Assembly (NCBI GenBank): GCA_964016885.1
Contig: OZ024745.1
Location: forward strand, 53,010,001 to 53,074,000
Length of the DNA stretch: 64,000 nucleotides
DNA from: Eledone cirrhosa
Lineage: Eukaryota
Direction: 5' to 3'
The notes under the pieces are model-generated. The model did not search any database. It was not told the origin of the DNA and was given only the letters and a program-made list of their open reading frames with translations. The translations under genes and the position numbers were made by a program. Shown here piece by piece: positions 1-64,000 of the stretch. How positions within the stretch are numbered: position 1 is the first letter of the stretch; every line of letters starts with the position of its first letter.

Positions 1-240
1 CTCTGAAATATGTATAATATTAATAACTCTGGAAAATATTTTTCCGTAGAGTGGTTCCAATCTACTGTAAAACTTATTCTTTGATGTACTCATTGAATCT
101 TGTTTAACTATTTAATATATATGTATATATATATATATATATACTGACCAACAACCGCTCTGCATAATCAGCTCCTGATTATTTACTAGATTTCTATAAG
201 AATATAACATCATTGATCTCAGTAGACAGGCGGGGTAGTT

Positions 241-284
241 GGCCTTGATAAGCTTCAACAAAAGCGAAACATGTCATGTCGGCT
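241..284 (+). ncRNA. Type I hammerhead ribozyme, U3-A8 core variant
   Basis: GGCC-TTGATAA-GCTT(caacaa)AAGC-GAA-ACATG(t)CATGT-C-GGCT gives stems I, II and III and a GUC site. It is enclosed by an outer helix, 213-230 pairing with 292-309. Confidence 0.7.
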
Positions 285-427
285 TATCTCCCCTGTTTGC
301 TGAGATCAAAGTGAGTGAATTTGTCACTACTTTAAAACAATAGCTTACGGTCTTCAAAATGCTTTTAATTAAGCATAAAGTGTATTGCAAAATACATTAT
401 ATATATATTGCTATTTCAGAGCTCCAA

Positions 428-1941: not shown

Positions 1942-2354
1942 AATCTTAGTTTTTCGAATATTAATAATAACATTCGATTCGTTTCCAATTATGCATACAA
2001 GCCTGAATGTTATAACAACCTCAGTAGAATAAACACTTCATTCTTGCTCTTGTGTTGGCATGTGAACAGAACTGCAGACACGATCAGTCACTGATAATAA
2101 CATATATTTAAAAATAACATATATTTTGAAAATAACATATATTTTCACTAGCTCTGACAGTTTGGCAGGTGAACAGTGAGCTGTACTGATGAAGGGTGAT
2201 GCCCAGAAACATTAGTGTTTGCAGTTCTGTTCGCATGCCAACACAAGAGCAAGAATGAAGTGTTCATTCTACTGACATGGCTATAAAATTGAGGCTTGTT
2301 TGCATAAATGCAAACGAATCGAATGTTATTATTAATATTCGAAAAACTCAGATT
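1942..2354. repeat. Inverted repeat (arms 1942-2081 and 2215-2354) between (TA)n tracts; PLE pseudo-LTR-type mini insertion
   Basis: The arms are reverse complements with scattered mismatches. The spacer holds three AATAACATATATTT-like repeats and most of a hammerhead. Confidence 0.85.
2178..2227 (+). ncRNA. Type I hammerhead ribozyme
   Basis: GAGCTGTA-CTGATGA-A-GGGT(gat)GCCC-A-GAA-ACATTAGTGT-T-TGCAGTTC, with an 8-bp stem I. The inverted arm keeps GTC at the cleavage triplet. Confidence 0.8.
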
Positions 2355-2907: not shown

Positions 2908-3252
<345 letters not shown>

Positions 3253-3409
3253 TCAGTTTATCAATAATGTAGTGATAATATATCGTTACGTTAGAGATGA
3301 ACAGCGTACGTGCAGGTTTGCTCAACGAGTATAAATTATATTCCGGAGAAATGTAGAAAGGATGAATATAAAATGAAAGTGCTTTTGTTAAAAAAGGAAT
3401 TTATTAGGT

Positions 3410-3524
3410 GTTGACATATGTTTCTGTAACAGACCGAATACCTATGTATCGCTGCTTGCGTAATCATATAATGTTAGCAAGTATTCGATAGCAAATGTAT
3501 AATCAGTCGTCACTTCTTCAGAGA
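3410..3524 (-). ncRNA. Hammerhead-like motif with long stem II in the PLE pseudo-LTR
   Basis: Minus strand: CTGAAGA-A-GTGAC GACTGA...TCGGTC t GTTAC-A-GAA-ACATATGT-C, followed by AATAAA. Stem I is only about 1 bp. Confidence 0.6.
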
Positions 3525-4113
3525 TTTTGGATAAACTGGATAAAATCAGAAAAATTGAAGTATTTATATTAGTAAAGGAGGTAGGAACAGAGGGGATAGT
3601 ATATGACAGATGGTAAAATAATTTACTGCTAGACAAGTATATAATGGGTTTTTAATGAGAATACCATGAGTAAATCTAAATAAGAATTTTGGGAGTGCCA
3701 ATTTTAATCTCTACTTGACCAACTGGACAGTGGACAGGGCTGGTCATTTGGTGCAGTAGTATTAATTATAAAGTGTCAATTGGGGAAGGGGGAGATTTCG
3801 ATTGCTACTAAATAACATCAATGCTAGTAGCCAGCTGGTATATGCATTAGGGAATTGAATCAAGAAATCAGAAATCTCATTTTATCTATAGCAGTTTGTA
3901 TTAAAAGGTAAATAATAGAAGAGTTGATAGAATTAAGACTAATAAAGAATGTTCATATATATTTTGACAATCAAACGGGGATAGAGACAGGCGTTCAATC
4001 CTGGTAGTATTTATAATATGAAAATGTAGATTTTAAGCGATGGTTACAGTATAACGATCATTCTATTCTGTTATTTAATAAAATGTTTTTGGATTTCATA
4101 ATACAAAATAATT

Positions 4114-6312
4114 CTACATTACATAATTTACAAAATTCCTGTCCATTGGAATATGGGGGGCAGCCGCTATTATATCCCATTTTAGGTGAAATTGTTGGTT
4201 ATTTTCACGCAGCTGCCAAGCCTTGTCTGCGAGTGTTGTTACATAACGCTGGTTTTCATGTTTTATCGAATAACGATGTCTATAAAGGCGTGATTTGAAG
4301 GAGGTGGCTGTAGATCCCACATAGTACCACTTCTGTCTATCCGATTCGATAGTACATTTGTATATGATGTTGCGTTCAAGACACTGATTGTTCAACGGAC
4401 ACATTCCTGGTTGGACACAGTTGCAATTATAATTTTGCGTTGTTGTATTGCCATGGATGGGTTGATGAGGTTGCTTATGTAGGACAGGATGTTGTTTGTT
4501 GTTTTGTGATGTTATAGCTAATGTTTTACGTGTATTGTTATGTGTTGGAAGGCGTTTATACAACCGTTTTGCGTTAAGCTTTTTTATATGTTGTTCAATA
4601 TTAGGGGCGGTTGAATATGAAAGTCGAATAGTGTTAGGGTTTAAGATTTTATTATTTTTATGTGATGTTGGAAAGTGTTTTCTAACTAATCGAAAGAATT
4701 TTGAGGGTAGATTGGTTTTAATAGAGTTGTTATAGACCGGGTTGTACCAGATATACTCCTTACATCGCCTTCTGTTTGGTGGTGTGCGACTATTATTGTG
4801 TCTATTGCGGTAGTGTATGTATGGTGGTGATTCTGTTCTATTTCTACTCCTATGTGATTTATTTTGGGTGTTTTGGTGATCTTTGACTATATACTCTATA
4901 TTATCTAGGTGACCGGCTTTCCTAAGTGCATCATCATAATACTCGGCATGTTCTTTGAAGGTTTGTTGGTTGGACGATAGGCGGGAGATCCTAAGAGAAA
5001 CATTTCTAGGGATGGATTTAATTATAGAGAGTGGATGGTTAGAACTCGTATTTACATATTTAAGGTTCTCATTTAGTTTATGGAACGGTTTAATCGTATC
5101 TGTATTGAGATTGAAAGTAACATCAAGGAAATTGACCTCTTTGAGGTTATATTCAAATGTAATATTTAATCCTAGTTCCTTAAAAAGCTTTCTGATATTT
5201 TTACGCATCCTTTCTAAATTCTGGTTATTCATATGCTTAACTAATAGGAGCGCATCGTCACGGTAAATTCCACCGTGGAGATCCTTGAATTTTCCTTGTA
5301 ATCTGTGGGTGATATAAATTCCCACAAGATCTGTTACTTCCGCCGAATCATTAGAACCCATAGTGATATCAAAATTAGAAGGTCTATCTTTGCGAACCCA
5401 GTAGCTATCATCGAATTTAACTATAGTTTTTCTCGCTTCCATAATAATTTTAATTTCAGCATCCGTAAGGTCGGAATTATCTTTAGCGAACGAAAGAGCT
5501 TCATGTAGAGTATCAGGTGAAATTGAGGAATAATATTCATCAATATCAAACTGAATAAATTTCGATTTTTTCTTATCAGTAATGTTATTAAACCATCTTA
5601 TTGCTTCATGAGTGTTACCCCATAGTTTAATCTCTACTTTAACCTTAACTTGGGGGATAATTCTGTCTAGTATATATTTGCTAATTTTACCTATATCAGA
5701 TTTAGAGGGGCATATAAGTCTAATATTAGGGTTAGTATCGAAGTTTACCTTGTGGTCCTTCAGGTTGAAGGATGGTATAGCTGGTGTTAAGGGTTGCGTT
5801 CTATCGTCAATACAAAGTTTTTTAACAATATCACATGCCGAGTTGTTGATGTTTTTAAGTGTGGCTTCATTAGTTTTCCTGTATTTTTTATGCAATTCCT
5901 TACGGATGAAGTTATTGTAAGTGTCCACATCCATGGTATATACGTTTGATGTTTTGTCTGCTCTAACAATAATTCCATTGGCGTTTTTTAGATTATTGAG
6001 CAGTGCCGTGATGTCATTCTGTAGTTTATTGTTCTTACGTTTTGTAAATTTGATCTCCATGATCATATCCATTAGGTCTTGTTCAAATGCATCCAAAAGT
6101 GGGTTTGAGGGTGGGTTCTTGTATGATTTAAATCCAAATTTATCCTTGTTAAGATCCGATGTTTGGTTTATACGGCTTTTGTCAAAATGGAATGTTTTCC
6201 ATCTGATTCGTCGAATAAAATCATTGGTCCTTCGTATCATACCTAGAATATATTCCCTTTTTGCCTGAATAGGTATGTTTTTTAACGACATATCCAATTG
6301 GTGCCTTTCCAT
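4114..6312 (-). CDS. PLE reverse transcriptase + C-terminal GIY-YIG endonuclease (732 aa, frameshifted near the C-terminus)
   Basis: RT motifs IQFDIDEYY, FDITMGSNDSAEV, GIYRDDAL and NFLDVTF. A CNC..CPL...C linker precedes NIIY...YYVGSTATSFKSRLYRH. The FCKLC...YCNH tail continues in another frame to about 3995. Confidence 0.92.
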   Translation of the reverse strand: MERHQLDMSLKNIPIQAKREYILGMIRRTNDFIRRIRWKTFHFDKSRINQTSDLNKDKFGFKSYKNPPSNPLLDAFEQDLMDMIMEIKFTKRKNNKLQNDITALLNNLKNANGIIVRADKTSNVYTMDVDTYNNFIRKELHKKYRKTNEATLKNINNSACDIVKKLCIDDRTQPLTPAIPSFNLKDHKVNFDTNPNIRLICPSKSDIGKISKYILDRIIPQVKVKVEIKLWGNTHEAIRWFNNITDKKKSKFIQFDIDEYYSSISPDTLHEALSFAKDNSDLTDAEIKIIMEARKTIVKFDDSYWVRKDRPSNFDITMGSNDSAEVTDLVGIYITHRLQGKFKDLHGGIYRDDALLLVKHMNNQNLERMRKNIRKLFKELGLNITFEYNLKEVNFLDVTFNLNTDTIKPFHKLNENLKYVNTSSNHPLSIIKSIPRNVSLRISRLSSNQQTFKEHAEYYDDALRKAGHLDNIEYIVKDHQNTQNKSHRSRNRTESPPYIHYRNRHNNSRTPPNRRRCKEYIWYNPVYNNSIKTNLPSKFFRLVRKHFPTSHKNNKILNPNTIRLSYSTAPNIEQHIKKLNAKRLYKRLPTHNNTRKTLAITSQNNKQHPVLHKQPHQPIHGNTTTQNYNCNCVQPGMCPLNNQCLERNIIYKCTIESDRQKWYYVGSTATSFKSRLYRHRYSIKHENQRYVTTLADKAWQLRENNQQFHLKWDIIAAAPHIPMDRNFVNYVM

Positions 6313-6523
6313 TTTAGAGGCGTATGCTGAATTAGTTGCTCAACTGTATAGGAGATTAATAAAATTTCAGGTTATCAATAATGTAGTGATAATATATCGT
6401 TACGTTAGAGATGAACAGCGTACGTGCAGGTTTGCTCAACGAGTATAAATTATATTCCGGAGAAATGTAGAAAGGATGAATATAAAATGAAAGTGCTTTT
6501 GTTAAAAAAGGAATTTATTAGGT

Positions 6524-6638
6524 GTTGACATATGTTTCTGTAACAGACCGAATACCTATGTATCGCTGCTTGCGTAATCATATAATGTTAGCAAGTATTC
6601 GATAGCAAATGTATAATCAGTTGTCACTTCTTCAGAGA
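6524..6638 (-). ncRNA. Second copy of the PLE hammerhead-like motif, upstream of the ORF start
   Basis: Same motif displaced by 3114 bp, with one substitution in stem II. Confidence 0.6.
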
Positions 6639-7108
6639 TTTTGGATAAACTGGATAAAATCAGAAAAATTGAAGTATTTATATTAGTAAAAGAGGAAGGA
6701 ACAGAGGGGATAGTATATGACAGATGGTAAAATAATTTACTGCTAGACAAGTATATAATGGGTTTTTAATGAGAATACCATGAGTAAATCTAAATAAGAA
6801 TTTTGGGAGTGCCAATTTTAATCTCTACTTGACCAACTGGACAGTGGACAGGGCTGGTCATTTGGTGCAGTAGTATTAATTATAAAGTGTCAATTGGGGA
6901 AGGGGGAGATTTCGATTGCTACTAAATAACATCAATGCTAGTAGCCAGCTGGTATATGCATTAGGGAATTGAATCAAGAAATCAGAAATCTCATTTTATC
7001 TATAGCAGTTTGTATTAAAAGGTAAATAATAGAAGAGTTGATAGAATTAAGACTAATAAAGAATGTTCATATCTATTTTGACAATCAAACGGGGATAGAG
7101 ACAGGCGT

Positions 7109-8204
7109 TCAATCCTGGTAGTATTTATAATATGAAAATGTAGATTTTAAGCGATGGTTACAGTATAACGATCGCTCTATTCTGTTATTTAATAAAATGT
7201 TTTTGGATTTCATAATACAAAATAATTCTACATTACATAATTTACAAAATTCCTGTCCATTGGAATATGGGGGGCAGCCGCTATTATATCCCATTTTAGG
7301 TGAAATTGTTGGTTATTTTCACGCAGCTGCCAAGCCTTGTCTGCGAGTGTTGTTACATAACGCTGGTTTTCATGTTTTATCGAATAACGATGTCTATAAA
7401 GGCGTGATTTGAAGGAGGTGGCTGTAGATCCCACATAGTACCACTTCTGTCTATCCGATTCGATAGTACATTTGTATACGATGTTGCGTTCAAGACACTG
7501 ATTGTTCAACGGACACATTCCTGGTTGGACACAGTTGCAATTATAATTTTGCGTTGTTGTATTGCCATGGATGGGTTGATGAGGTTGCTTATGTAGGACA
7601 GGATGTTGTTTGTTGTTTTGTGATGTTATAGCTAATGTTTTACGTGTATTGTTATGTGTTGGAAGGCGTTTATACAACCGTTTTGCGTTAAGCTTTTTTA
7701 TATGTTGTTCAATATTAGGGGCGGTTGAATATGAAAGTCGAATAGTGTTAGGGTTTAAGATTTTATTATATTTATGTGATGTTGGAAAGTGTTTTCTAAC
7801 TAATCGAAAGAATTTTGAGGGTAGATTGGTTTTAATAGAGTTGTTATAGACCGGGTTGTACCAGATATACTCCTTACATCGCCTTCTGTTTGGTGGTGTG
7901 CGACTATTATTGTGTCTATTGCGGTAGTGTATGTATGGTGGTGATTATGTGCTATTTCTACTCCTATGTGATTTATTTTGGGTGTTTTGGTGATCTTTGA
8001 CTATATACTCTATATTATCTAGGTGACCGGCTTTCCTAAGTGCATCATCATAATACTCGGCATGTTCTTTGAAGGTTTGTTGGTTGGACGATAGGCGGGA
8101 GATCCTAAGAGAAACATTTCTAGGGATGGATTTAATTATAGAGAGTGGATGGTTAGAACTCGTATTTACATATTTAAGGTTCTCATTTAGTTTATGGAAC
8201 GGTT
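7109..8204 (-). pseudogene. Duplicated 3' part of the PLE ORF (thumb, linker, GIY-YIG)
   Basis: ORF 7228-7677 is almost identical to the C-terminus of 4114-6312. Confidence 0.9.
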
Positions 8205-8273
8205 ACAGAAACATATGTCAACACCTAATAAATTCCTTTTTTAACAAAAGCACTTTCATTTTATATTCATCCT

Positions 8274-8320
<47 letters not shown>

Positions 8321-17825: not shown

Positions 17826-17863
<38 letters not shown>

Positions 17864-17871
<8 letters not shown>

Positions 17872-18268
17872 TAAACGGAATAGAAAATGCTGACAAATTG
17901 TTCACAGTTGAAAAATGGTTTAATTAGGAATAAAAGAGTATTAGTGATTGTATGGGTTAGTATTCAGTTGTGGTTTTAAGTTTTTAAGTTTTTACCGGTT
18001 GCGCATTTCTAAATGCTTTTCAAAAATAATTTTGAGATAGAGTGTCCGTGCTGTTTGCTCTGATCTGAGCAGAGCAAACAGCACGGACACTCTATCTCAA
18101 AATTATTTTTGAAAAGCATTTAGAAATGCGCAACCGGTAAAAATTTAAAAACTTAAAACCACAACTGAATACTAACCCATACAATCACTAATACTCTTTT
18201 ATTCCTAATTAAACCATTTTTCAACTGTGAACAATTTGTCAGCATTTTCTATTCCGTTTACCAATATA
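17864..18268. repeat. Near-perfect 400-bp palindrome (arms 17864-18062 and 18070-18268, 7-nt spacer) in (TA)n
   Basis: The arms are reverse complements with about one mismatch. Each carries TTGAAAA-GCATT(taga)AATGC-GCA-ACCGGT-A. Confidence 0.95.
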
Positions 18269-18299
18269 TAATAACTTGTGTGTTACACCTCTATTCTTT

Positions 18300-32262: not shown

Positions 32263-32545
<283 letters not shown>

Positions 32546-32683: not shown

Positions 32684-32773
32684 TGTGTCCGAAGAACCTG
32701 CAGATCTAGAATCAGACAGATCCATACAATGATCGTGTCTCGAGCTATCTGCCGGCGAAACAATTGTAACACA
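32684..32773 (+). ncRNA. Type I hammerhead motif (U4C core, long stem II)
   Basis: TGTGT-CCGAAGA-A-CCTGCAGAT...ATCTGCCGG-C-GAA-ACAATTGT-A-ACACA, then AATAAA. Confidence 0.7.
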
Positions 32774-34825: not shown

Positions 34826-35428
34826 CTATTTCTGGACTAAATTAGAATTTTTACCCTGGTGAATAAATAGCCGAACTTTTCATATGGGAAGATTGTAGTT
34901 ATCAAGAGGATTGGTTAAACTTTGTTGTAAACACAAATAAGTCTATCATGGCATTTGGTGGGAGGTAGGGGTGGCTGAACTTGCCTGTAGAACAATAGGG
35001 GAGTGAGTGGAGCGGTCAAGCGTTGAAAATGATATGTATACAGCAGATTCTAAGGATAGTGTATGAAGTGGAGGAGGGAGGTTATAGAATAGGTAAATCG
35101 AATGAGAGTAGGAAACAATAAAAGATAATAGAAAGAAATAAAATTAGATAGTGAGAAATGAATACAAAAAATCACAATGCTATCTTACAATTACAGGTTA
35201 ATAAGTTAAGAATAGAAAAAACTTGTAGAAATTGAGTAGTACCAGAACTGATACAAAATTAAAGGGGTTTAACACGTCTGCTATAAGTAGTTAGTAAAAC
35301 GTATTCGGCTAATTCCATCTTAAAATTACAGGGGTTGGGGAACTGATGCTACACAGGCCCGATGGTCTGCATCGGGGTAGGCGATAGAGGAAAAGCAGAC
35401 GAGGAAGAGAAATTTCTTCACCCGCACG

Positions 35429-37321
35429 ATGCGAAAACACAACATCGACTTCTCCACCAAGAACATCCCAGTTCCACCGAGAAAACTTTACCTTCGGATG
35501 CTCACGCAAAAAATCGACCTTTTTGCGAAAAGACTTAGATGGAGAACTTTTTTCTACGATAGATACCGCGACAATCAGGACTTCGACACCAAGGAGAGTT
35601 TCGGATTCAATACCTACAAATCTCCCCTCCGAACCCTATGCTCTCACCCTTCGAGAACGACCTTTTCCACCTGGTCAAGAACATTAAATTCAAAGCCAGA
35701 CACAACAGATTCCTACAACAACTCCGTAGCAAAATAACAGATTATGAAAACAGCAACGACATCATAGTGCACTCGGACAAAACTAGAAACCTCTACTTCG
35801 TAAACCCTGACAGAGTTGTACCAAAAGTTAAGCAAAACGTGAGACTTAGCCTATGGGTCAGCACCCAGGAAGTAATCTCATGGTTCAGGAATATGGAGGA
35901 CAAACTAGACACAAAATTCATCCAGTTTGACATAGAGAGCTACTATGCATATATTACCTTACCGCTCCTTACGGTCGCCTTGGACTTTCCCGAAACACTC
36001 ACGCCCATCACTGACCAGGAGAGAAATATCATTCTCCACGCCAGGAAGACAGTCCTACTTTTCGAAAACTACAAGTGGATAAAGAGAGCTCCCGACTCCC
36101 CCTTCGACGTCAGTATGGGCGCGACGGATTCGGCCGAGGTCACAGATCTTTTAGGATTATTCCTACTATTTAAACTCACCGAAATGTTTCCTGCATTCGG
36201 CGGTGGATTATACCGGGATGATGGGCTCCTCACCCTCAAAGAGTACAACGCCAGTAGTACAGATCGGATCCGTAAACAACTAATCAACTTCTTCCGGGAC
36301 TGGGGATTTAAAATCACCCTACCAACGTCCCTAACCCGAGTCAATTTCCTGGACGTTACCCTTAACCTCGAAAATGATCTATATTACCCATACAGGAAAC
36401 CAAACGACATCCTGCACTACATCCACCGCCGCTCTAACCATCCTAGAATCATCACCAATAACCTTGTTAAAAACATCTCCCTCCGCATATCTCGTTTGTC
36501 CGCTAATGAGCAGATATTCGACGAACACGCGCCTCATTACAACCAGGCCCTCAAGCGGAGTGGCTTCTGGGAGGAAATATCCTTTTATCCAGCTTCCCTT
36601 AGCGGAACCAGTAGGTGACACCGCCGCTCACGCAACGTAACGTGGTTCAATCCTCCCCATAATGCCGAGGTGGCAACACCTATCGGGAAAATCTTATTTA
36701 GACTTCTCGAAAAACACTTCCCACTACAACACCGCTACCACAACATAAACAACAAAAACACCATCAAACTCTCCTACGGCACCACACCTAATTTCGCACA
36801 AAACATCCTCTCCTCAAACAACAAAAAACTTAACCCCTATGGAAGAAATAACCTAGACATCAGTGGAAAGCCGACCAGGAGGTGCAACTGCCCTGATAGA
36901 TCTACGTGCCCCCTCAACAACAAATGCCGAGAACGTAACGTGATCTACCAGTCCAACGTGAGGATGAACACCTCCAACAAAGCTTATATAGGATTAACCG
37001 TGTGTGACTTCAACACCCGGCTCTACCAACACCGACATACACTCCGAAACCCGGTCCGGCGACATGCCACTACACTTTCGGGCAACATCTGGGACCTCCA
37101 AGATAATAATATAACCTACAATCTCACTTGGAGCTTACTGTCCAGAGCTAACTCTTACACGGAGGACCCCGTCCGTGTAACTTATGCTCGGAGGAAACAT
37201 TACAAATGTTGTTTTCGAAGGACCAACTCATAAACAAGAAAGACGAACTGGTAACCGCATGTAAACACAGATTGCGTAGGACTTACCTCGCCCTTAAACC
37301 CAATAACGACCCGGGTGGGTA
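35429..37321 (+). pseudogene. PLE RT + GIY-YIG pseudogene (frameshifts, stop, internal deletion)
   Basis: STKNIPVP..RLRWRTFF, IQFDIESYY, FDVSMGATDSAEV, GLYRDDGL, CNC...CPLNNKC and AYIGLT. Confidence 0.92.
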
Positions 37322-37744
37322 GAAAAGGGCTGATACCCCCCCCCCCCCCACCACCACCACCACCACCACCACCACCACCACACACACCCACTTGCCGAAT
37401 AAGTTAGGGGAAACCCCACCTTACTTAGGTAGATGTATCTCTTTTCTTTTCTTTTCCTCTTTGTCTTCTTCCTCCTGTCTCTTCCTATCATTTCCTTCCA
37501 ACCCCTATTTTCTTACTCGTCTGCTTTTCCCCTTTCGCCAACCCCGATGCAGCCCATCGGGCCTCTGTAGCATCAGTTCCCCCAACCCTGTAATTTTAAG
37601 ATAGAATTGGCCGAATACGTTTTACTAACTACTTATAGCAGACGTGTTAAAACCCTTTAATTTTGTATCAGTTCTGGTACTATTCAATTTCTACAATTTT
37701 TTTCTATTCTCAAATTATTAACCTGTAATTGTAAGATAGCATTA

Positions 37745-38480
37745 TCAGTGGAGACTCCAGCTCGACATTCTATAGAGGGCTGGTACGCAGCAGGTGCAAT
37801 GACCCCCTCGGAGAAGCCCTAGGCATGGAGGAAGACGAACTGGCTAGCCTGTTCGGTAGGACATTTAGCCCGGGACCCATGGACAACTTCCAGAGGTCCC
37901 TGGCCTGGCAGTACTACCGAGGGGCTCTGCCCGTTCGAGAAAAGCTCTACAGACACGGGCGCCCGGGGAGAGATCCCTCGAAAAGGATCTGTCCCAGATG
38001 CGTGCGCGACGAGGAATCCGTCGCGCATGCATTGGTACACTGCCCGGGCGTCGCCTATCTGTGGGGATACATCGAACGACTAGTGTAACGGGAGGGACCT
38101 ATCCGGTTGACCACCGAGTCTATTATAACGATCAAGTCGCCTCCCCCCTTCAAAAATGAAGGAGAGGCGGTGTTTCTGTGCGTAATAGCCATGGGGAAAG
38201 AGGTTGTATGTTGGACGCGTTTGAAAGGACTGAGGTCAGACACCTTTCGCTCTGGCCAACAACTGGTCCTTTTCTTCCAACAAGGGGGCACACTCTCTGT
38301 GCTCCTGGGGAGAAGGGTTGCACACTTTTTGTGTGACCCCCCAAAACGCCTCCTCCATATTGAGGACTTTATTGTTAATTTTATATTTGTTATTGGGTAT
38401 TGTTTACTCGTTCTTTTGTGTAAACTCCCCCCTTTGTATTTGTCCCCTTCTTTTGCGCCCTCGTGGCAATAAATAGAAAT
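37745..38480 (+). mobile_element. 5'-truncated Tx1/L1-like LINE inserted in the PLE 3' UTR
   Basis: Closely similar to the reverse complement of 61660-62590. Contains CPRC..EESVAHALVHC and ends at AATAAA. Confidence 0.9.
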
Positions 38481-47625: not shown

Positions 47626-47706
47626 GCCTTCTGACGAGGATCTCTTTCTCAATGGAAATCCGTTTGGATTATCTATTCGTTTGGGATCTGAAACAGAGGT
47701 AAAGGC
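47626..47706 (+). ncRNA. Type I hammerhead ribozyme, copy 1
   Basis: GCCTT-CTGACGA-GGATCTC...GGGATCT-GAA-AC(agag)GT-A-AAGGC. Confidence 0.85.
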
Positions 47707-53005: not shown

Positions 53006-54523
53006 CGAAGGAGATGCGGTAAGGAACCATATATATAACGCACAAGAGTACTCAATACTTAGGCTAGTAGAGTGGGTATTAGGAGAAAGTATGACCCCGA
53101 CGGCAGAGCTCAAGCCGTTTGACGGCTATTTCTGGACTAACGTAAGAGTATTTTTAGTCTGGTAAATAAATAGCCGAACGTTTCAAAGGGTTCTTCCTTA
53201 TATGGGGAGATTCTAGTTGTCAAGTGGATTGGTCAAAGTTTGTAGCAGACACAGAGAAATCTATCATGGCAGTTGGTGCGGGGCGGGGATGGCTGGACTT
53301 GCCTGTAGAACGATATGGGGTGGGTAGAGCCGGTCAAGCGTAGAAGATGAAATCTGCACGGCAAATTCTAAGGAATGTGTATGAAAGTAGGCCAGAGGAG
53401 GTTGGCGAAAAAAGGTTTCTTTAAAAAGTGGAAGAGGGACGTTATAGAAATAGTAAATCAAATGCGATTAGGGGACAATGAAAGAATATAATAAAAAATG
53501 AGAGAAAGATGTATCAGAATGTAAGATTGGAAAGTGAGAAGTGAAATAAAACAAAAACTAAGGAGTCTAACACAGCTGTTATATTTAGTTGGTGCTCCTA
53601 TTTCGGCCAAAGCTATAGAATGAGTTGCTAGATGAGAATTATTGAAAATTTAGAATTAAAAGTCAATACCACATCTCTGGGGTCTAACACAGCTGCTATG
53701 AATAGTTAGTATAGCGTAATCGGCGAATGATATCTGTAAGTAGCTAGGGTGGGGGTACTGAGGCTAAACAGGCCCGATGGGCTGTCTCGAGGTAGGTGAA
53801 AGAGGAAAAAAACAAAGAAACGAACGTGGAAGAAGTTCGGTGGTGGAAAGAAGTGATAGGAGGAGACAAAGGGAAGAAGAAAACATAGAGGAAAAGCAAA
53901 GAGGTACATTTACCTATATAAGTAGGGGTTATCCCTATCTTATTCGTCAAGTGGGGTGTTTCAGCCCTAGTCTACCCACCCGGATCGTTAGGGGGTTTGA
54001 GGGCGAGGTAGGTCTTCCGCAATCTGTGTTTGCATGCAGTTACCAGTTCGTCTTTTTTGTTTAGGAGTTGATCTTTCGTAAACAGCATTTTTAATATTTC
54101 CTCCGAGCATAAGTTACACGGACGGCGGCCTCCCGTGTAAGAGATAGCTCTGGACAGTAAGCTCCAAGTAAGATGGTAAGTTATATTATTATTTTGGAGG
54201 TCCCAGATATGGTCCGAAAGTGTGGTGGCATGTCGCCAGACCGGGTTTCGGAACGTATGGCTGTGTTGGTAGAGCCGGGTCTTAAAGTTACAAGCGGTTA
54301 ATCCTATATAAGCGCTTTGTTGGAGGTGTCCGTCCTCACGTTGCACTGGTAGATCACGTTACGTTCTCGGCATGTTGACCAATCCTCTTGACAACTACAA
54401 TCTTCCCATATAAGGAAAAGTTCGGCTATGTATTTACCCGACTAAAAAAACTCTTAATTTAGTCCAGAAGTAGCCGTCAAAACGGCTTGAGCTCTGCCGT
54501 CGGGGTCATACTTTCTCCTAATA
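53006..54523 (-). mobile_element. 5'-truncated family-B-related PLE with inverted terminal piece 54374-54523
   Basis: AYIGLTACNFKTRLYQH...RPCNLCSEE...TACKH is homologous to 36670-37321. 53077-53235 is inverted at 54374-54523. (TA)n on both sides. Confidence 0.9.
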
Positions 54524-61654: not shown

Positions 61655-64000
61655 TAACTTTCTTTTTATTTGCCACCAGGGCATCAAAGAGTGGGATAAG
61701 TACAATGGAGGGAGTTTACATAAAAAGGCGTCCTCACTAAGGAGGAAGCAATAACAAAATATAAAAATATAAAATATAAAACATAACAAAAATAAATTGA
61801 AAAACAAAATCCTCAATAGGGAGGAGGCGCCATGGGGGTCGCCCCCCCCCCCTCGAAAAAAGTGTGCAACCCTTCTCCTCAGGAGCACAGAGAGAGGGTG
61901 CTCCCATGATCTTTCATCTTTCCCACCTACAGTCTGATGTAGAGTAAAGGCCCATTCACACAGGCCATTCTCCCCACGTTCACCCATCTTTCATAGAAAC
62001 GGCTGGGGTGCAGCACCTCTCTCTCCATCCTGATCCTTCTTCCGAAATGATATCGGAAGAAACGGACCAGTTGTTGGCCAGAGAAAGCTGTCTGACCTCA
62101 GTCCTTTCAGACACGTCCACCATACAACCTCTTTCGCCATGGCTATTACACACAGAAACACCGCCTCTCCTTCGTTTTTGAAGAAGGGAGGCGGCTTGAT
62201 CGTTACAATAGACTCGGTGGTCAACCGGATCGGTCCCACCCTTGACAGCAGTTGTTCAACATAGTCCCACAGATCGGCAATGCCCGAGCAGTGTACCAAT
62301 GCGTGTGCAACGGTTTCCTCGTCGCACACGCATTTGGGACAGATCTTTTTCGAGGGGTCCCTACCCGGGCGCCCGTGTCTGTAGAGCCTTTCTCGAACGG
62401 GCAGAGCCCCTCGGTAGCACTGCCAGGCCAGGGACCTCTGGAAGTTATCCATGGGTCCTGGGTTGAATGTCCTACCGAACAGGTTGGCCAGTTCGTCTTC
62501 CTCCATGCCTAAGGCTTCTCCGAGGGCATCGTCGCACCTGCTAACCACCAGCCCTCTATAGAATGACGAGGTGGATTCTCCACTGACAGCCGGGTCCGCC
62601 TGTCAGAGGGCCGTGAGCGCCTGGGCACACGCGGTGTGCCAGGCGCCCAGTTTTCTCGGTCTTTGCTTGACCCAGGATTGCAGCTCGGTGAGCGAGACGA
62701 GTAGACGAGTCTGGAAAAGGCTCGCCTTACAAACGGGGCCCACACCGGTTGACCGGTGAGGAATACCTGGAGGTGCCGTAGCCTTAATGCGTGTTTACAT
62801 AGCATTAGCCACGGCATCCCCAGCCCTCCTTTCGAAGGGTGTTGACAGCAGATGGATATCCTCACCATAAGAGCCCGCTTCGTCCAAAGGAATTGGAAGA
62901 GTGCGCGCTCCATTTTGGCGAGCGTTTCCCTTGGGCAAGGCACAACGGTCAGGCGGAGGTAGATGACAGACGCTATATAAGTGTTCGCCACCTCCGCTCG
63001 ACCTTTAAGGGACAGTTTGCACTCGGCCCACTTCTGGGTCAGTGCAAACACCCTGTTCGTTACCTCACCCCAGTTCTTCTCCACCTCGAGATCTGGTCCG
63101 AACCAGACCCCGAGCAACTTCACTGGGCCCTCCGTCCAGCGCCCGACGACGCTATCGGAGGGCATCGATCTCCCTCTCTACGTGCCGAATTGCAGACCGA
63201 TCGACTTGTCCCGGTTCAGCTAGGCCCCTGTAAACCTTTCGTACTTATCCAGTAAGGTGCCGATCGCCCCGATTTCCGAGGCCGTCGACACCATTACTGT
63301 TACGTTATCGGTGTAGGCCGACATCGCTTTCCGCAATCCCGGTCCAACGGGATGCCGTGCAACAACTCCAACTTCCGAAGCAGTGGCTCTAGAGTCATTA
63401 CATACAGAAGAGAGGAGAGAGGGCACCCTTGTCGGATGGACCGCGCGATTTCGAACGGCTCCGAGAGGTAGCCGTTCAGCTTGACCCTAGAGCAGATGCA
63501 GCTGCTGTGCATGGCATTGATCCAGCCCCTGAAAACAGGTCCGAAGCCTGCCGCCGCTAGCACCGCATCCAGGTAACCATGGTCGACCCTATCGAACGCC
63601 TTAGATTGATCCACGTTGATCAGGGCCCCACCAAAGCCGGGTTCGTTCCCAACCCTCTCTTTGATGTATCGCATGAGGTAGAGGTTGCCGTGGATGGACC
63701 TGGACGGGCTAGTACATGTCTGCGCATCTCCCACCAGGTTGCCCACGACAAGCGCCAACCTCTTTTCTAGCACTTTGGCCAAAATCTGTAACTCTATATT
63801 TAGCAGAGTTATGGGCCTGAAATTATTTATATCGTCCCCCTTGTTCTCGTCCTTCCTCACTAGCGTGATTACGCCCTTGGTCACAGCACAGGGAATTCTC
63901 CTGTTCTGTTACCAGTTTCAGTAGACCGCCTCGAGGAGATCGGGGAAAAGTCCGGCATAGCTAGATATAGTTCGTATGGAAGACCATCGAGACCCGGGGA
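61655..64000 (-). mobile_element. Tx1/L1-clade LINE, ORF2 RT-to-CCHC region, frameshifted, running off the window
   Basis: FRPITLLN, DQSKAFDRVDH, RQGCPLS, AYTDNV, LSLKGRA, GGLGMP and CPKC..ETVAHALVHC, with AATAAA at the 3' end. Confidence 0.93.

Follow-up and report, generated by a model that had tools for sequence, protein, structure and literature searches.

Insertion ends downstream of a predicted hammerhead cut in a partial tandem of a putative Hydra-like Penelope-like retrotransposon from Eledone cirrhosa

The tandem insertion and its protein

We analysed a 64,000-nt window of the Eledone cirrhosa genome (contig OZ024745.1; all coordinates are those of this window), which holds a partial tandem of a putative Penelope-like element (PLE) with hammerhead-like motifs, and we find that insertions of this element end downstream of the predicted hammerhead cut. 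Read along the minus strand, the tandem consists of (TA)n, an inverted 72-nt piece (8276-8205), a truncated unit (8204-6528), a full unit (6527-3414), a repeat of the leader (3413-3245) and again (TA)n. The whole insertion amounts to 1.593 units, head-to-tail and (TA)n-flanked, and with its Hydra-like PLE marks it bears out an initial annotation of the locus as a tandem PLE of about 1.6 units.

The full unit opens with a leader of 214 nt (6313-6526, minus strand), which contains the two insertion-end sites, A and B, and ends before the ATG at 6312. There follow on the same strand the main open reading frame (ORF) of 732 aa (4114-6312), an endonuclease tail in another frame (3995-4159; CxxC, E, N, CxH), the 3' untranslated region (UTR) up to the predicted cut (3414-3994), and a downstream hammerhead-like motif (3413-3521), which is a twin of 6635-6527 and differs from it only at 3508, within stem II. 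The leader repeat (3245-3413, minus strand) runs to site A, where the insertion ends in (TA)n 166-168 nt past the cut. The upstream unit (6528-8204, minus strand) is 5'-truncated and retains the C-terminal half of the ORF with its own stop at 7947, the 3' UTR and the upstream hammerhead-like motif (6527-6635, minus strand); a C run at 7274-7269 breaks its frame, as in the full unit. The inverted 5' piece (8205-8276, plus strand) is a copy of unit positions 6470-6541, that is, GAAAC-AUAU-GUC plus 57 nt of leader, and it is joined to the tandem body through a 3-nt microhomology at 8202-8204, its outer end lying in (TA)n.

The initial annotation had placed predicted GUC sites at 6527 and 3413 of the minus strand, bracketing a 3114-nt segment with about 215 nt of leader, the whole reverse transcriptase (RT) and endonuclease ORF, and the 3' UTR. 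These coordinates are reproduced (C17 of GUC at both positions, 3114 nt apart), as are the leader, measured at 214 nt (6526-6313), and the 3' UTR in the segment; the ORF is whole as a DNA span but not as a reading frame, being broken at a C run (4160-4155). The spacing of the two GUC sites, however, carries no information of its own, because both lie within the overlap of the tandem (3245-5090 against 6359-8204: 1846 nt, offset by exactly 3114, differing at 11 positions and without a gap), every base of which has a twin 3114 nt away. The window holds four copies of the GUC, two in the tandem, a third in the inverted piece and a fourth in a tiny independent insertion of the element's own family (32402-32512), which sits between (TG)n and (TA)n. 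In the latter, some 36-39 nt antisense from site A stand head-to-head with a sense piece that runs from unit position 6548 across the GUC (32459) to site B. All four GUC junctions are seamless, with no scar on read-through.

The predicted protein has an RT followed by a C-terminal GIY-YIG endonuclease (YRDD at aa 350, YYVG at aa 663), with RWK at aa 37, DKT in place of DKG at aa 119, and CxCx5C at aa 630; R37, W38, D119, K120, C630, C632 and C638 are invariant in an alignment of 21 members. Among 8000 scored candidates, the ORF search returned 60 homologues at E up to 1e-10 (31-40% identical), and the closest protein is 37-41% identical to the focal ORF. Pfam gave no match to the window protein, RVT_1 and GIY-YIG each matching one of the 21 aligned members, and by eye no CCHH motif was seen within the endonuclease (alignment columns 701-800). 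RWK, DKT, CxCx5C, CxxC/CxH around E and N, and a (TA)n target are described as marks of the Hydra clade (PMC8557442), and the insertion has all of the Hydra-type traits: (TA)n target, partial tandem, inverted 5' copy and tail. On its predicted protein and target we class the element as a Hydra-like PLE of the C-terminal endonuclease (EN+) kind. No relatives of the ORF were found in viral contigs or, by sequence, in PDB, and no family DNA was found in viral contigs; a genome-contig match (L080) was a lone 22-mer and was treated as chance.

Homology of the main ORF stops near aa 718, at the C run. The tail frame matches the homologue alignment (hhalign 92.6%, E 4.5e-07), and in the full unit it carries an additional TGA at 4060-4058. 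Since the tail is out of frame after the C run and interrupted by this TGA, the tandem copy is predicted to encode no whole endonuclease. For comparison we used contigs from four runs (X1-X4) of one study, which represent at most two samples of a kind not on record, and contig depth was not taken as copy number. The C run has a different length in 11-16% of contig depth in runs X1-X3; the break may be an allele of the family, a private change or an error of assembly.

The hammerhead-like motif

The upstream motif follows the conserved order of a type I hammerhead (CUGAnGA, GAAA, NUH), with CUGAAGA at 6635-6629, a stem II span of 90 nt (6628-6539), GAAAC at 6538-6534 and GUC at 6529-6527. Stem III is the palindrome ACAUAUGU, which gives 3 bp with a 2-nt loop in the monomer, and two motif copies pair over 8 bp in helix III (duplex -7.0 kcal/mol). 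Stem I comes to 1 bp, just as the initial annotation had cautioned in calling it nearly absent. The corresponding 10-nt flank duplex (helix I) has +3.0 kcal/mol, against -1.5 to -10.1 kcal/mol in 37 relatives preselected for a stem I of at least 3 bp. The core with GAAAC..GUH and a stem II of at least 6 bp arose in none of 5000 dinucleotide shuffles of the 798-nt non-coding part (in two when at least 3 bp were asked for), and the 90-nt stem II hairpin has folding z-scores of -4.2 and -4.6 (0 of 200 shuffles each). The motif is therefore more than chance, yet aberrant. Rfam gave no ribozyme match at the motif, and a model (R1) built on the hammerheads of the 37 relatives gave at most 5.4 bits on fragments, the motif being about twice the model length.

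Helix I is required for hammerhead cleavage. No alternative 5' partner for it followed by a CUGA core was found in 6300-7200, and a distal 7-bp pairing of about 6651-6645 with 6518-6512 was rejected as weak (-2.4 kcal/mol), with a large loop beside the core. Neither non-circular permutations (PMC10085705) nor pseudoknot hammerheads (PMC11300833) offered a fit, as both, in their published descriptions, retain helix I next to CUGA. The octamer that directly follows the cut is complementary to part of the stem II arm (6558-6551), at 8 of 8 positions for the allele of the 32.4-kb insertion and at 7 of 8 in the tandem; such a pairing arose in 0.4% and 4.9% of 20000 shuffles, respectively. This alternative helix would enclose GAAA and GUC and exclude CUGAAGA. 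Dimer folding would restore helix III but not helix I, a point based on the Fig. 1 legend and text of PMC4209133, and in the variants described in PMC10085705 all helices are required. Judged by its predicted fold, the motif likely cuts poorly.

It is the missing helix I, not the long stem II, that sets the focal motif apart, because two other motifs of the window have stems of 52 and about 62 nt with stem I intact. These hammerhead-like motifs belong to other families and lie at 32689-32768 (+; stem II about 62 nt, z -3.0, core CCGAAGA) and 47631-47701 (+; stem II 52 nt, z -3.6), each with a stem I of 5 bp. Short hammerhead remnants of further repeat families lie at 2186-2219 (+), 1447-1417 (-), 59952-59907 (-) and 231-301 (+), the last a degenerate, weak Rfam HH9 match.

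By eye, a splice-donor-like AG|GTATT stands in the stem II arm at 6554 (-), and a pyrimidine tract ending in CAG at 6343 (-), 31 nt before the ATG. PLEs are known to have introns in the leader, and an intron between these points would remove the cut site and both start sites.

Insertion ends and the template of reverse transcription

Site A (the equivalent of 6359-6361; +166 to +168 from the cut) is where the main insertion ends, and site B (6468-6470; +57 to +59) is where the inverted piece ends; together they bound a tail of about 109 nt. Indeed, the tandem and the 32402-32512 insertion, which are independent, share both outer ends. In the contigs of the other runs, loose ends in (TA)n fall at 6359 (11 contigs in X2, two in X4) and at 6468 (six in X3), and none falls at 6526/6527 among the 24 of 341 loose ends listed. 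Insertions end downstream of the predicted cut, not at the cut. Taken with the read-through GUC junctions, these ends mean that the template was continuous across the GUC, whether uncut, religated or precisely jumped. For an element of the anole, both strands are described as cut and extended, with two internal start sites that bound a tail (PMC11167929), and an optional tail on one of two inverted pseudo-long terminal repeats (pLTRs) is described in PMC3846280, with which the focal ends agree. Both pieces attributed to priming at site B cross the GUC and stop 14-21 nt further on, in the 3' arm of stem II.

Of the three opposite-strand joints listed on 5091-8204, two place an arm next to the hammerhead core, at 6635 or 6644. 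Taken with the two inversions of the window itself, at 6541-6548, they may point to the stem II hairpin as a place around which inversions cluster.

We lean, with reserve, towards a Hydra-like PLE that entered (TA)n by target-primed reverse transcription started inside the leader of an uncut multi-unit RNA, and we infer the following steps of insertion. The endonuclease would have nicked each strand of the (TA)n target. Priming at site A by one of them would have led to a 4.96-kb copy that runs through both GUC sites; synthesis from the other, which primed at site B, would have come to a halt at the base of the long stem II, 14-17 nt beyond the GUC, and the two cDNAs would then have been joined through the 3-nt microhomology. 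The template would most likely have been a read-through RNA of several units that was left uncut, in line with the proposal for the anole Poseidon element. We favour an uncut RNA because helix I is lacking and because of the behaviour of that element, for which the relevant text of PMC11167929 reports that hammerhead mutants insert normally in vitro, that no RNA-seq ends fall at the cut and that cleavage needs protein. The hammerhead-like motif may then serve as a protein-binding fold or be a relic that is slow or depends on protein, and the tandem copy would need the endonuclease in trans.

A number of observations weigh against this explanation. Because the template extended upstream of the upstream GUC by 1677 nt, a linear donor would require either a host promoter or an array of at least two units. 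Junctions just as seamless are left by a religated circle or a precise template jump, and DNA cannot tell these routes apart; moreover, the null result for loose ends at the cut rests on the 24 of 341 listed. Both units share alleles at 6650, 6746, 7068, 7384 and 7796 that are in the minority or absent in the compared runs, although these runs hold at most 0.60 of the element's words, and the point is weakened because they may be from another individual or species. The 11 differences between the units include four in the main frame, all of which change the amino acid, one of them to a stop; they look like decay after insertion, and the units look to have been identical at insertion, as a circle predicts. 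Shared rare alleles and decay-like differences would together indicate a single unit sequence duplicated recently in this lineage. The intact core, GUC, palindromic stem III and strong stem II in a distant family suggest selection. Lastly, in the related loci described below, two of 13 3' repeat boundaries lie near the cut (-5 and -6, upstream), and one 5' boundary lies at +6 (the upstream copy of locus L064).

The initial annotation had instead proposed that self-cleavage of read-through RNA releases a unit-length, possibly circular RNA, whose rolling reverse transcription yields the 1.6-unit product. This idea is not new, since cleavage, ligation to circles and more-than-unit reverse transcription were proposed in 2014 as the source of PLE tandems in general (PMC4209133). 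In its form here, read-through RNA would be cut at both GUC sites, with helix III formed as a dimer and helix I supplied by a protein or by non-standard pairing, and ligated by the host to a 3114-nt circle that is reverse transcribed from site A. We regard this as possible, if tentative. Through a circle, a single unit could give rise to a 1.59-unit product, and the shared rare alleles and the shared frame break would be accounted for; the intact core and the 8-bp self-complementary helix III (-7.0 kcal/mol) speak for the circle, as do the circles described for short animal retrozymes with type I hammerheads (PMC7229834) and the hammerhead of the anole PLE, reported to cleave once protein is added (PMC11167929). 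On the other hand, the 1-bp helix I is unrepaired by a dimer, model R1 of the clade misses the motif (possibly through its length limit), the runs may be of another individual or species, which alone could account for the shared alleles, and RNA starting upstream of 8276 would include an antisense copy of the cut site. We found no full-length PLE circle in the literature searched, which was largely open-access. The geometry and the family were thus rightly recognised in the earlier proposal, but it does not sit well with insertion ends downstream of the cut, a missing helix I and a truncated endonuclease; with a helix I of 1 bp, a dimer that restores only helix III and a protein truncated in its endonuclease, the locus is a poor candidate for the circle model. 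A bolder version, in which a helix-I-less hammerhead variant with a 90-nt stem II does cleave, held by protein or through the 8-nt helix with 6558-6551, so that a 3.1-kb coding circle is the true intermediate primed at two fixed internal sites, strikes us as unlikely; no description of the focal motif was found in the same literature.

The tandem could also have arisen without any circle, if the RT ran off the 5' end of a unit-length RNA and jumped to its 3' end or to a second molecule, or if a new copy homed into the AT-rich leader of an existing one. Identical units would result here too, the scenario set out in PMC11167929 has the element nick its own pLTR, PMC3846280 appeals to template jumps, and in L064 the upstream copy starts 6 nt past the cut. 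An imprecise jump, however, would be expected to leave a scar, whereas the four GUC junctions are all clean; the 24 of 341 loose ends listed do not accumulate at the cut, and 10 of 11 5' boundaries of relatives are far from it, so we consider this origin improbable. That one unit was entered twice, or two haplotypes joined, during assembly we hardly credit at all. The (TA)n flanks are long, no contig among the matches listed spans a whole unit, and a homopolymer error could underlie the frame break that the units share at the C run, but the units differ at 11 sites and each has its own stop codon, contigs bridge the leader-ORF junction at 6359 (a run X3 record, 6149-6386), and partial tandems with inverted 5' pieces are described as a normal PLE form (PMC8557442, PMC3846280). 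The element is new but of a known type, its geometry and the circle model being already in print.

Relatives, comparable systems and neighbouring repeats

We compared 79 related loci, in which motifs were parsed without a stem I filter. A sense-strand hammerhead motif is present in 51 of them, giving 52 distinct motifs. Stem I has at least 3 bp in 49 of the 52, 2 bp in two and none in one, and the stem II span is 10-25 nt in 51 of 52, as against 90 nt in the focal motif; in the 37 relatives preselected for stem I, all five helix I pairs show two-sided changes. Likewise, all 27 Hydra rows in File S2 of PMC8557442 have a stem I and a short stem II, and the two motif strings of the focal family are absent from that supplement. 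An identical motif occurs twice in 10 of the 79 loci, 2362-2847 nt apart, some of these being contig-end overlaps, and the paired-motif geometry is the norm of the clade. With respect to ends, 11 of the 13 3' repeat boundaries fall downstream of the cut, by 39-425 nt, one of 11 5' boundaries is within 10 nt of it and the other ten are far off, and (TA)n starts 33-141 nt after the cut in 12 cases.

In common with the Hydra clade as described in PMC8557442, the focal element has a hammerhead core, located where it is expected in the pLTR, in which stem II is flanked on either side by one unpaired base and stem III is short. Leaders in relatives with a clear ORF start are 144-218 nt long, a range that includes the 214 nt of the focal leader. 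The clade is, in the same description, generally below 3 kb with a tail of typically 30-40 bp, whereas the focal unit has 3114 nt and its family a tail of about 109 nt. Minimal PLE hammerheads (PMC4209133) share with the focal element a pair of motifs that flank the RT ORF at a distance of about 3 kb, a palindromic helix III for dimers and a low expected activity, but their helix I has 4-5 bp (2 bp in D. virilis) and their helix II 6-8 bp. The Poseidon element of the anole (Anolis PAc; PMC11167929) resembles it in having two internal starts downstream of the hammerhead that bound a tail, an AT-rich target and extension of both strands; it differs in belonging to another clade, in starts that lie inside the ORF and not in the leader, and in a hammerhead that has stem I and cleaves with protein. 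Animal non-LTR (long terminal repeat) retrozymes (PMC7229834; bioRxiv 10.64898/2026.07.22.740005) similarly consist of tandem units with one type I hammerhead each and their circles are proven, but they are 170-400 nt long and non-coding, with a canonical helix I.

The focal family bears on how PLEs regenerate tandems and on the role of their hammerheads. The geometry first flagged at this locus is ordinary and does not by itself advance that question. As a natural contrast the family is more telling, since it appears abundant in the compared runs despite a motif without helix I. If the motif does not cleave, hammerhead cleavage would be dispensable for the spread of PLEs in vivo; if it does, this would be a new hammerhead architecture, and the circle model would gain a test case.

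A second, decayed Hydra-like family is present in the window (35176-37743 and 53679-54373), with a broken ORF (35429-37240, +) that is 37-40% identical to the focal ORF, a 236-nt inverted pLTR (35176-35411) and a truncated minus-strand copy; a hammerhead core was looked for in the 3' part of this family and not found. A quick tree of 63 rows, made of homologues only, without named Hydra references or an outgroup (55 of the 79 loci had an ORF of at least 500 aa), groups the focal ORF with the homologue P0001 and this second family, all on long branches. As the second family falls with the focal ORF in this tree, decay of the motif may be a trait of the branch that unites them. The focal ORF has N/H/R-rich insertions in the thumb (aa 480-515) and the linker (aa 585-625), whose position is shared with P0001 and which are absent in the other 19 aligned homologues.

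Elsewhere in the window, fragments of a non-LTR retrotransposon RT ORF lie at 61991-63908 (-) and 37745-38251, the latter a 507-nt piece that recurs there in inverted orientation, directly after the second Hydra-like element, and 18 kb into the window a near-perfect 204-nt palindrome (17862-18270) is 99% complementary with a 1-nt spacer.

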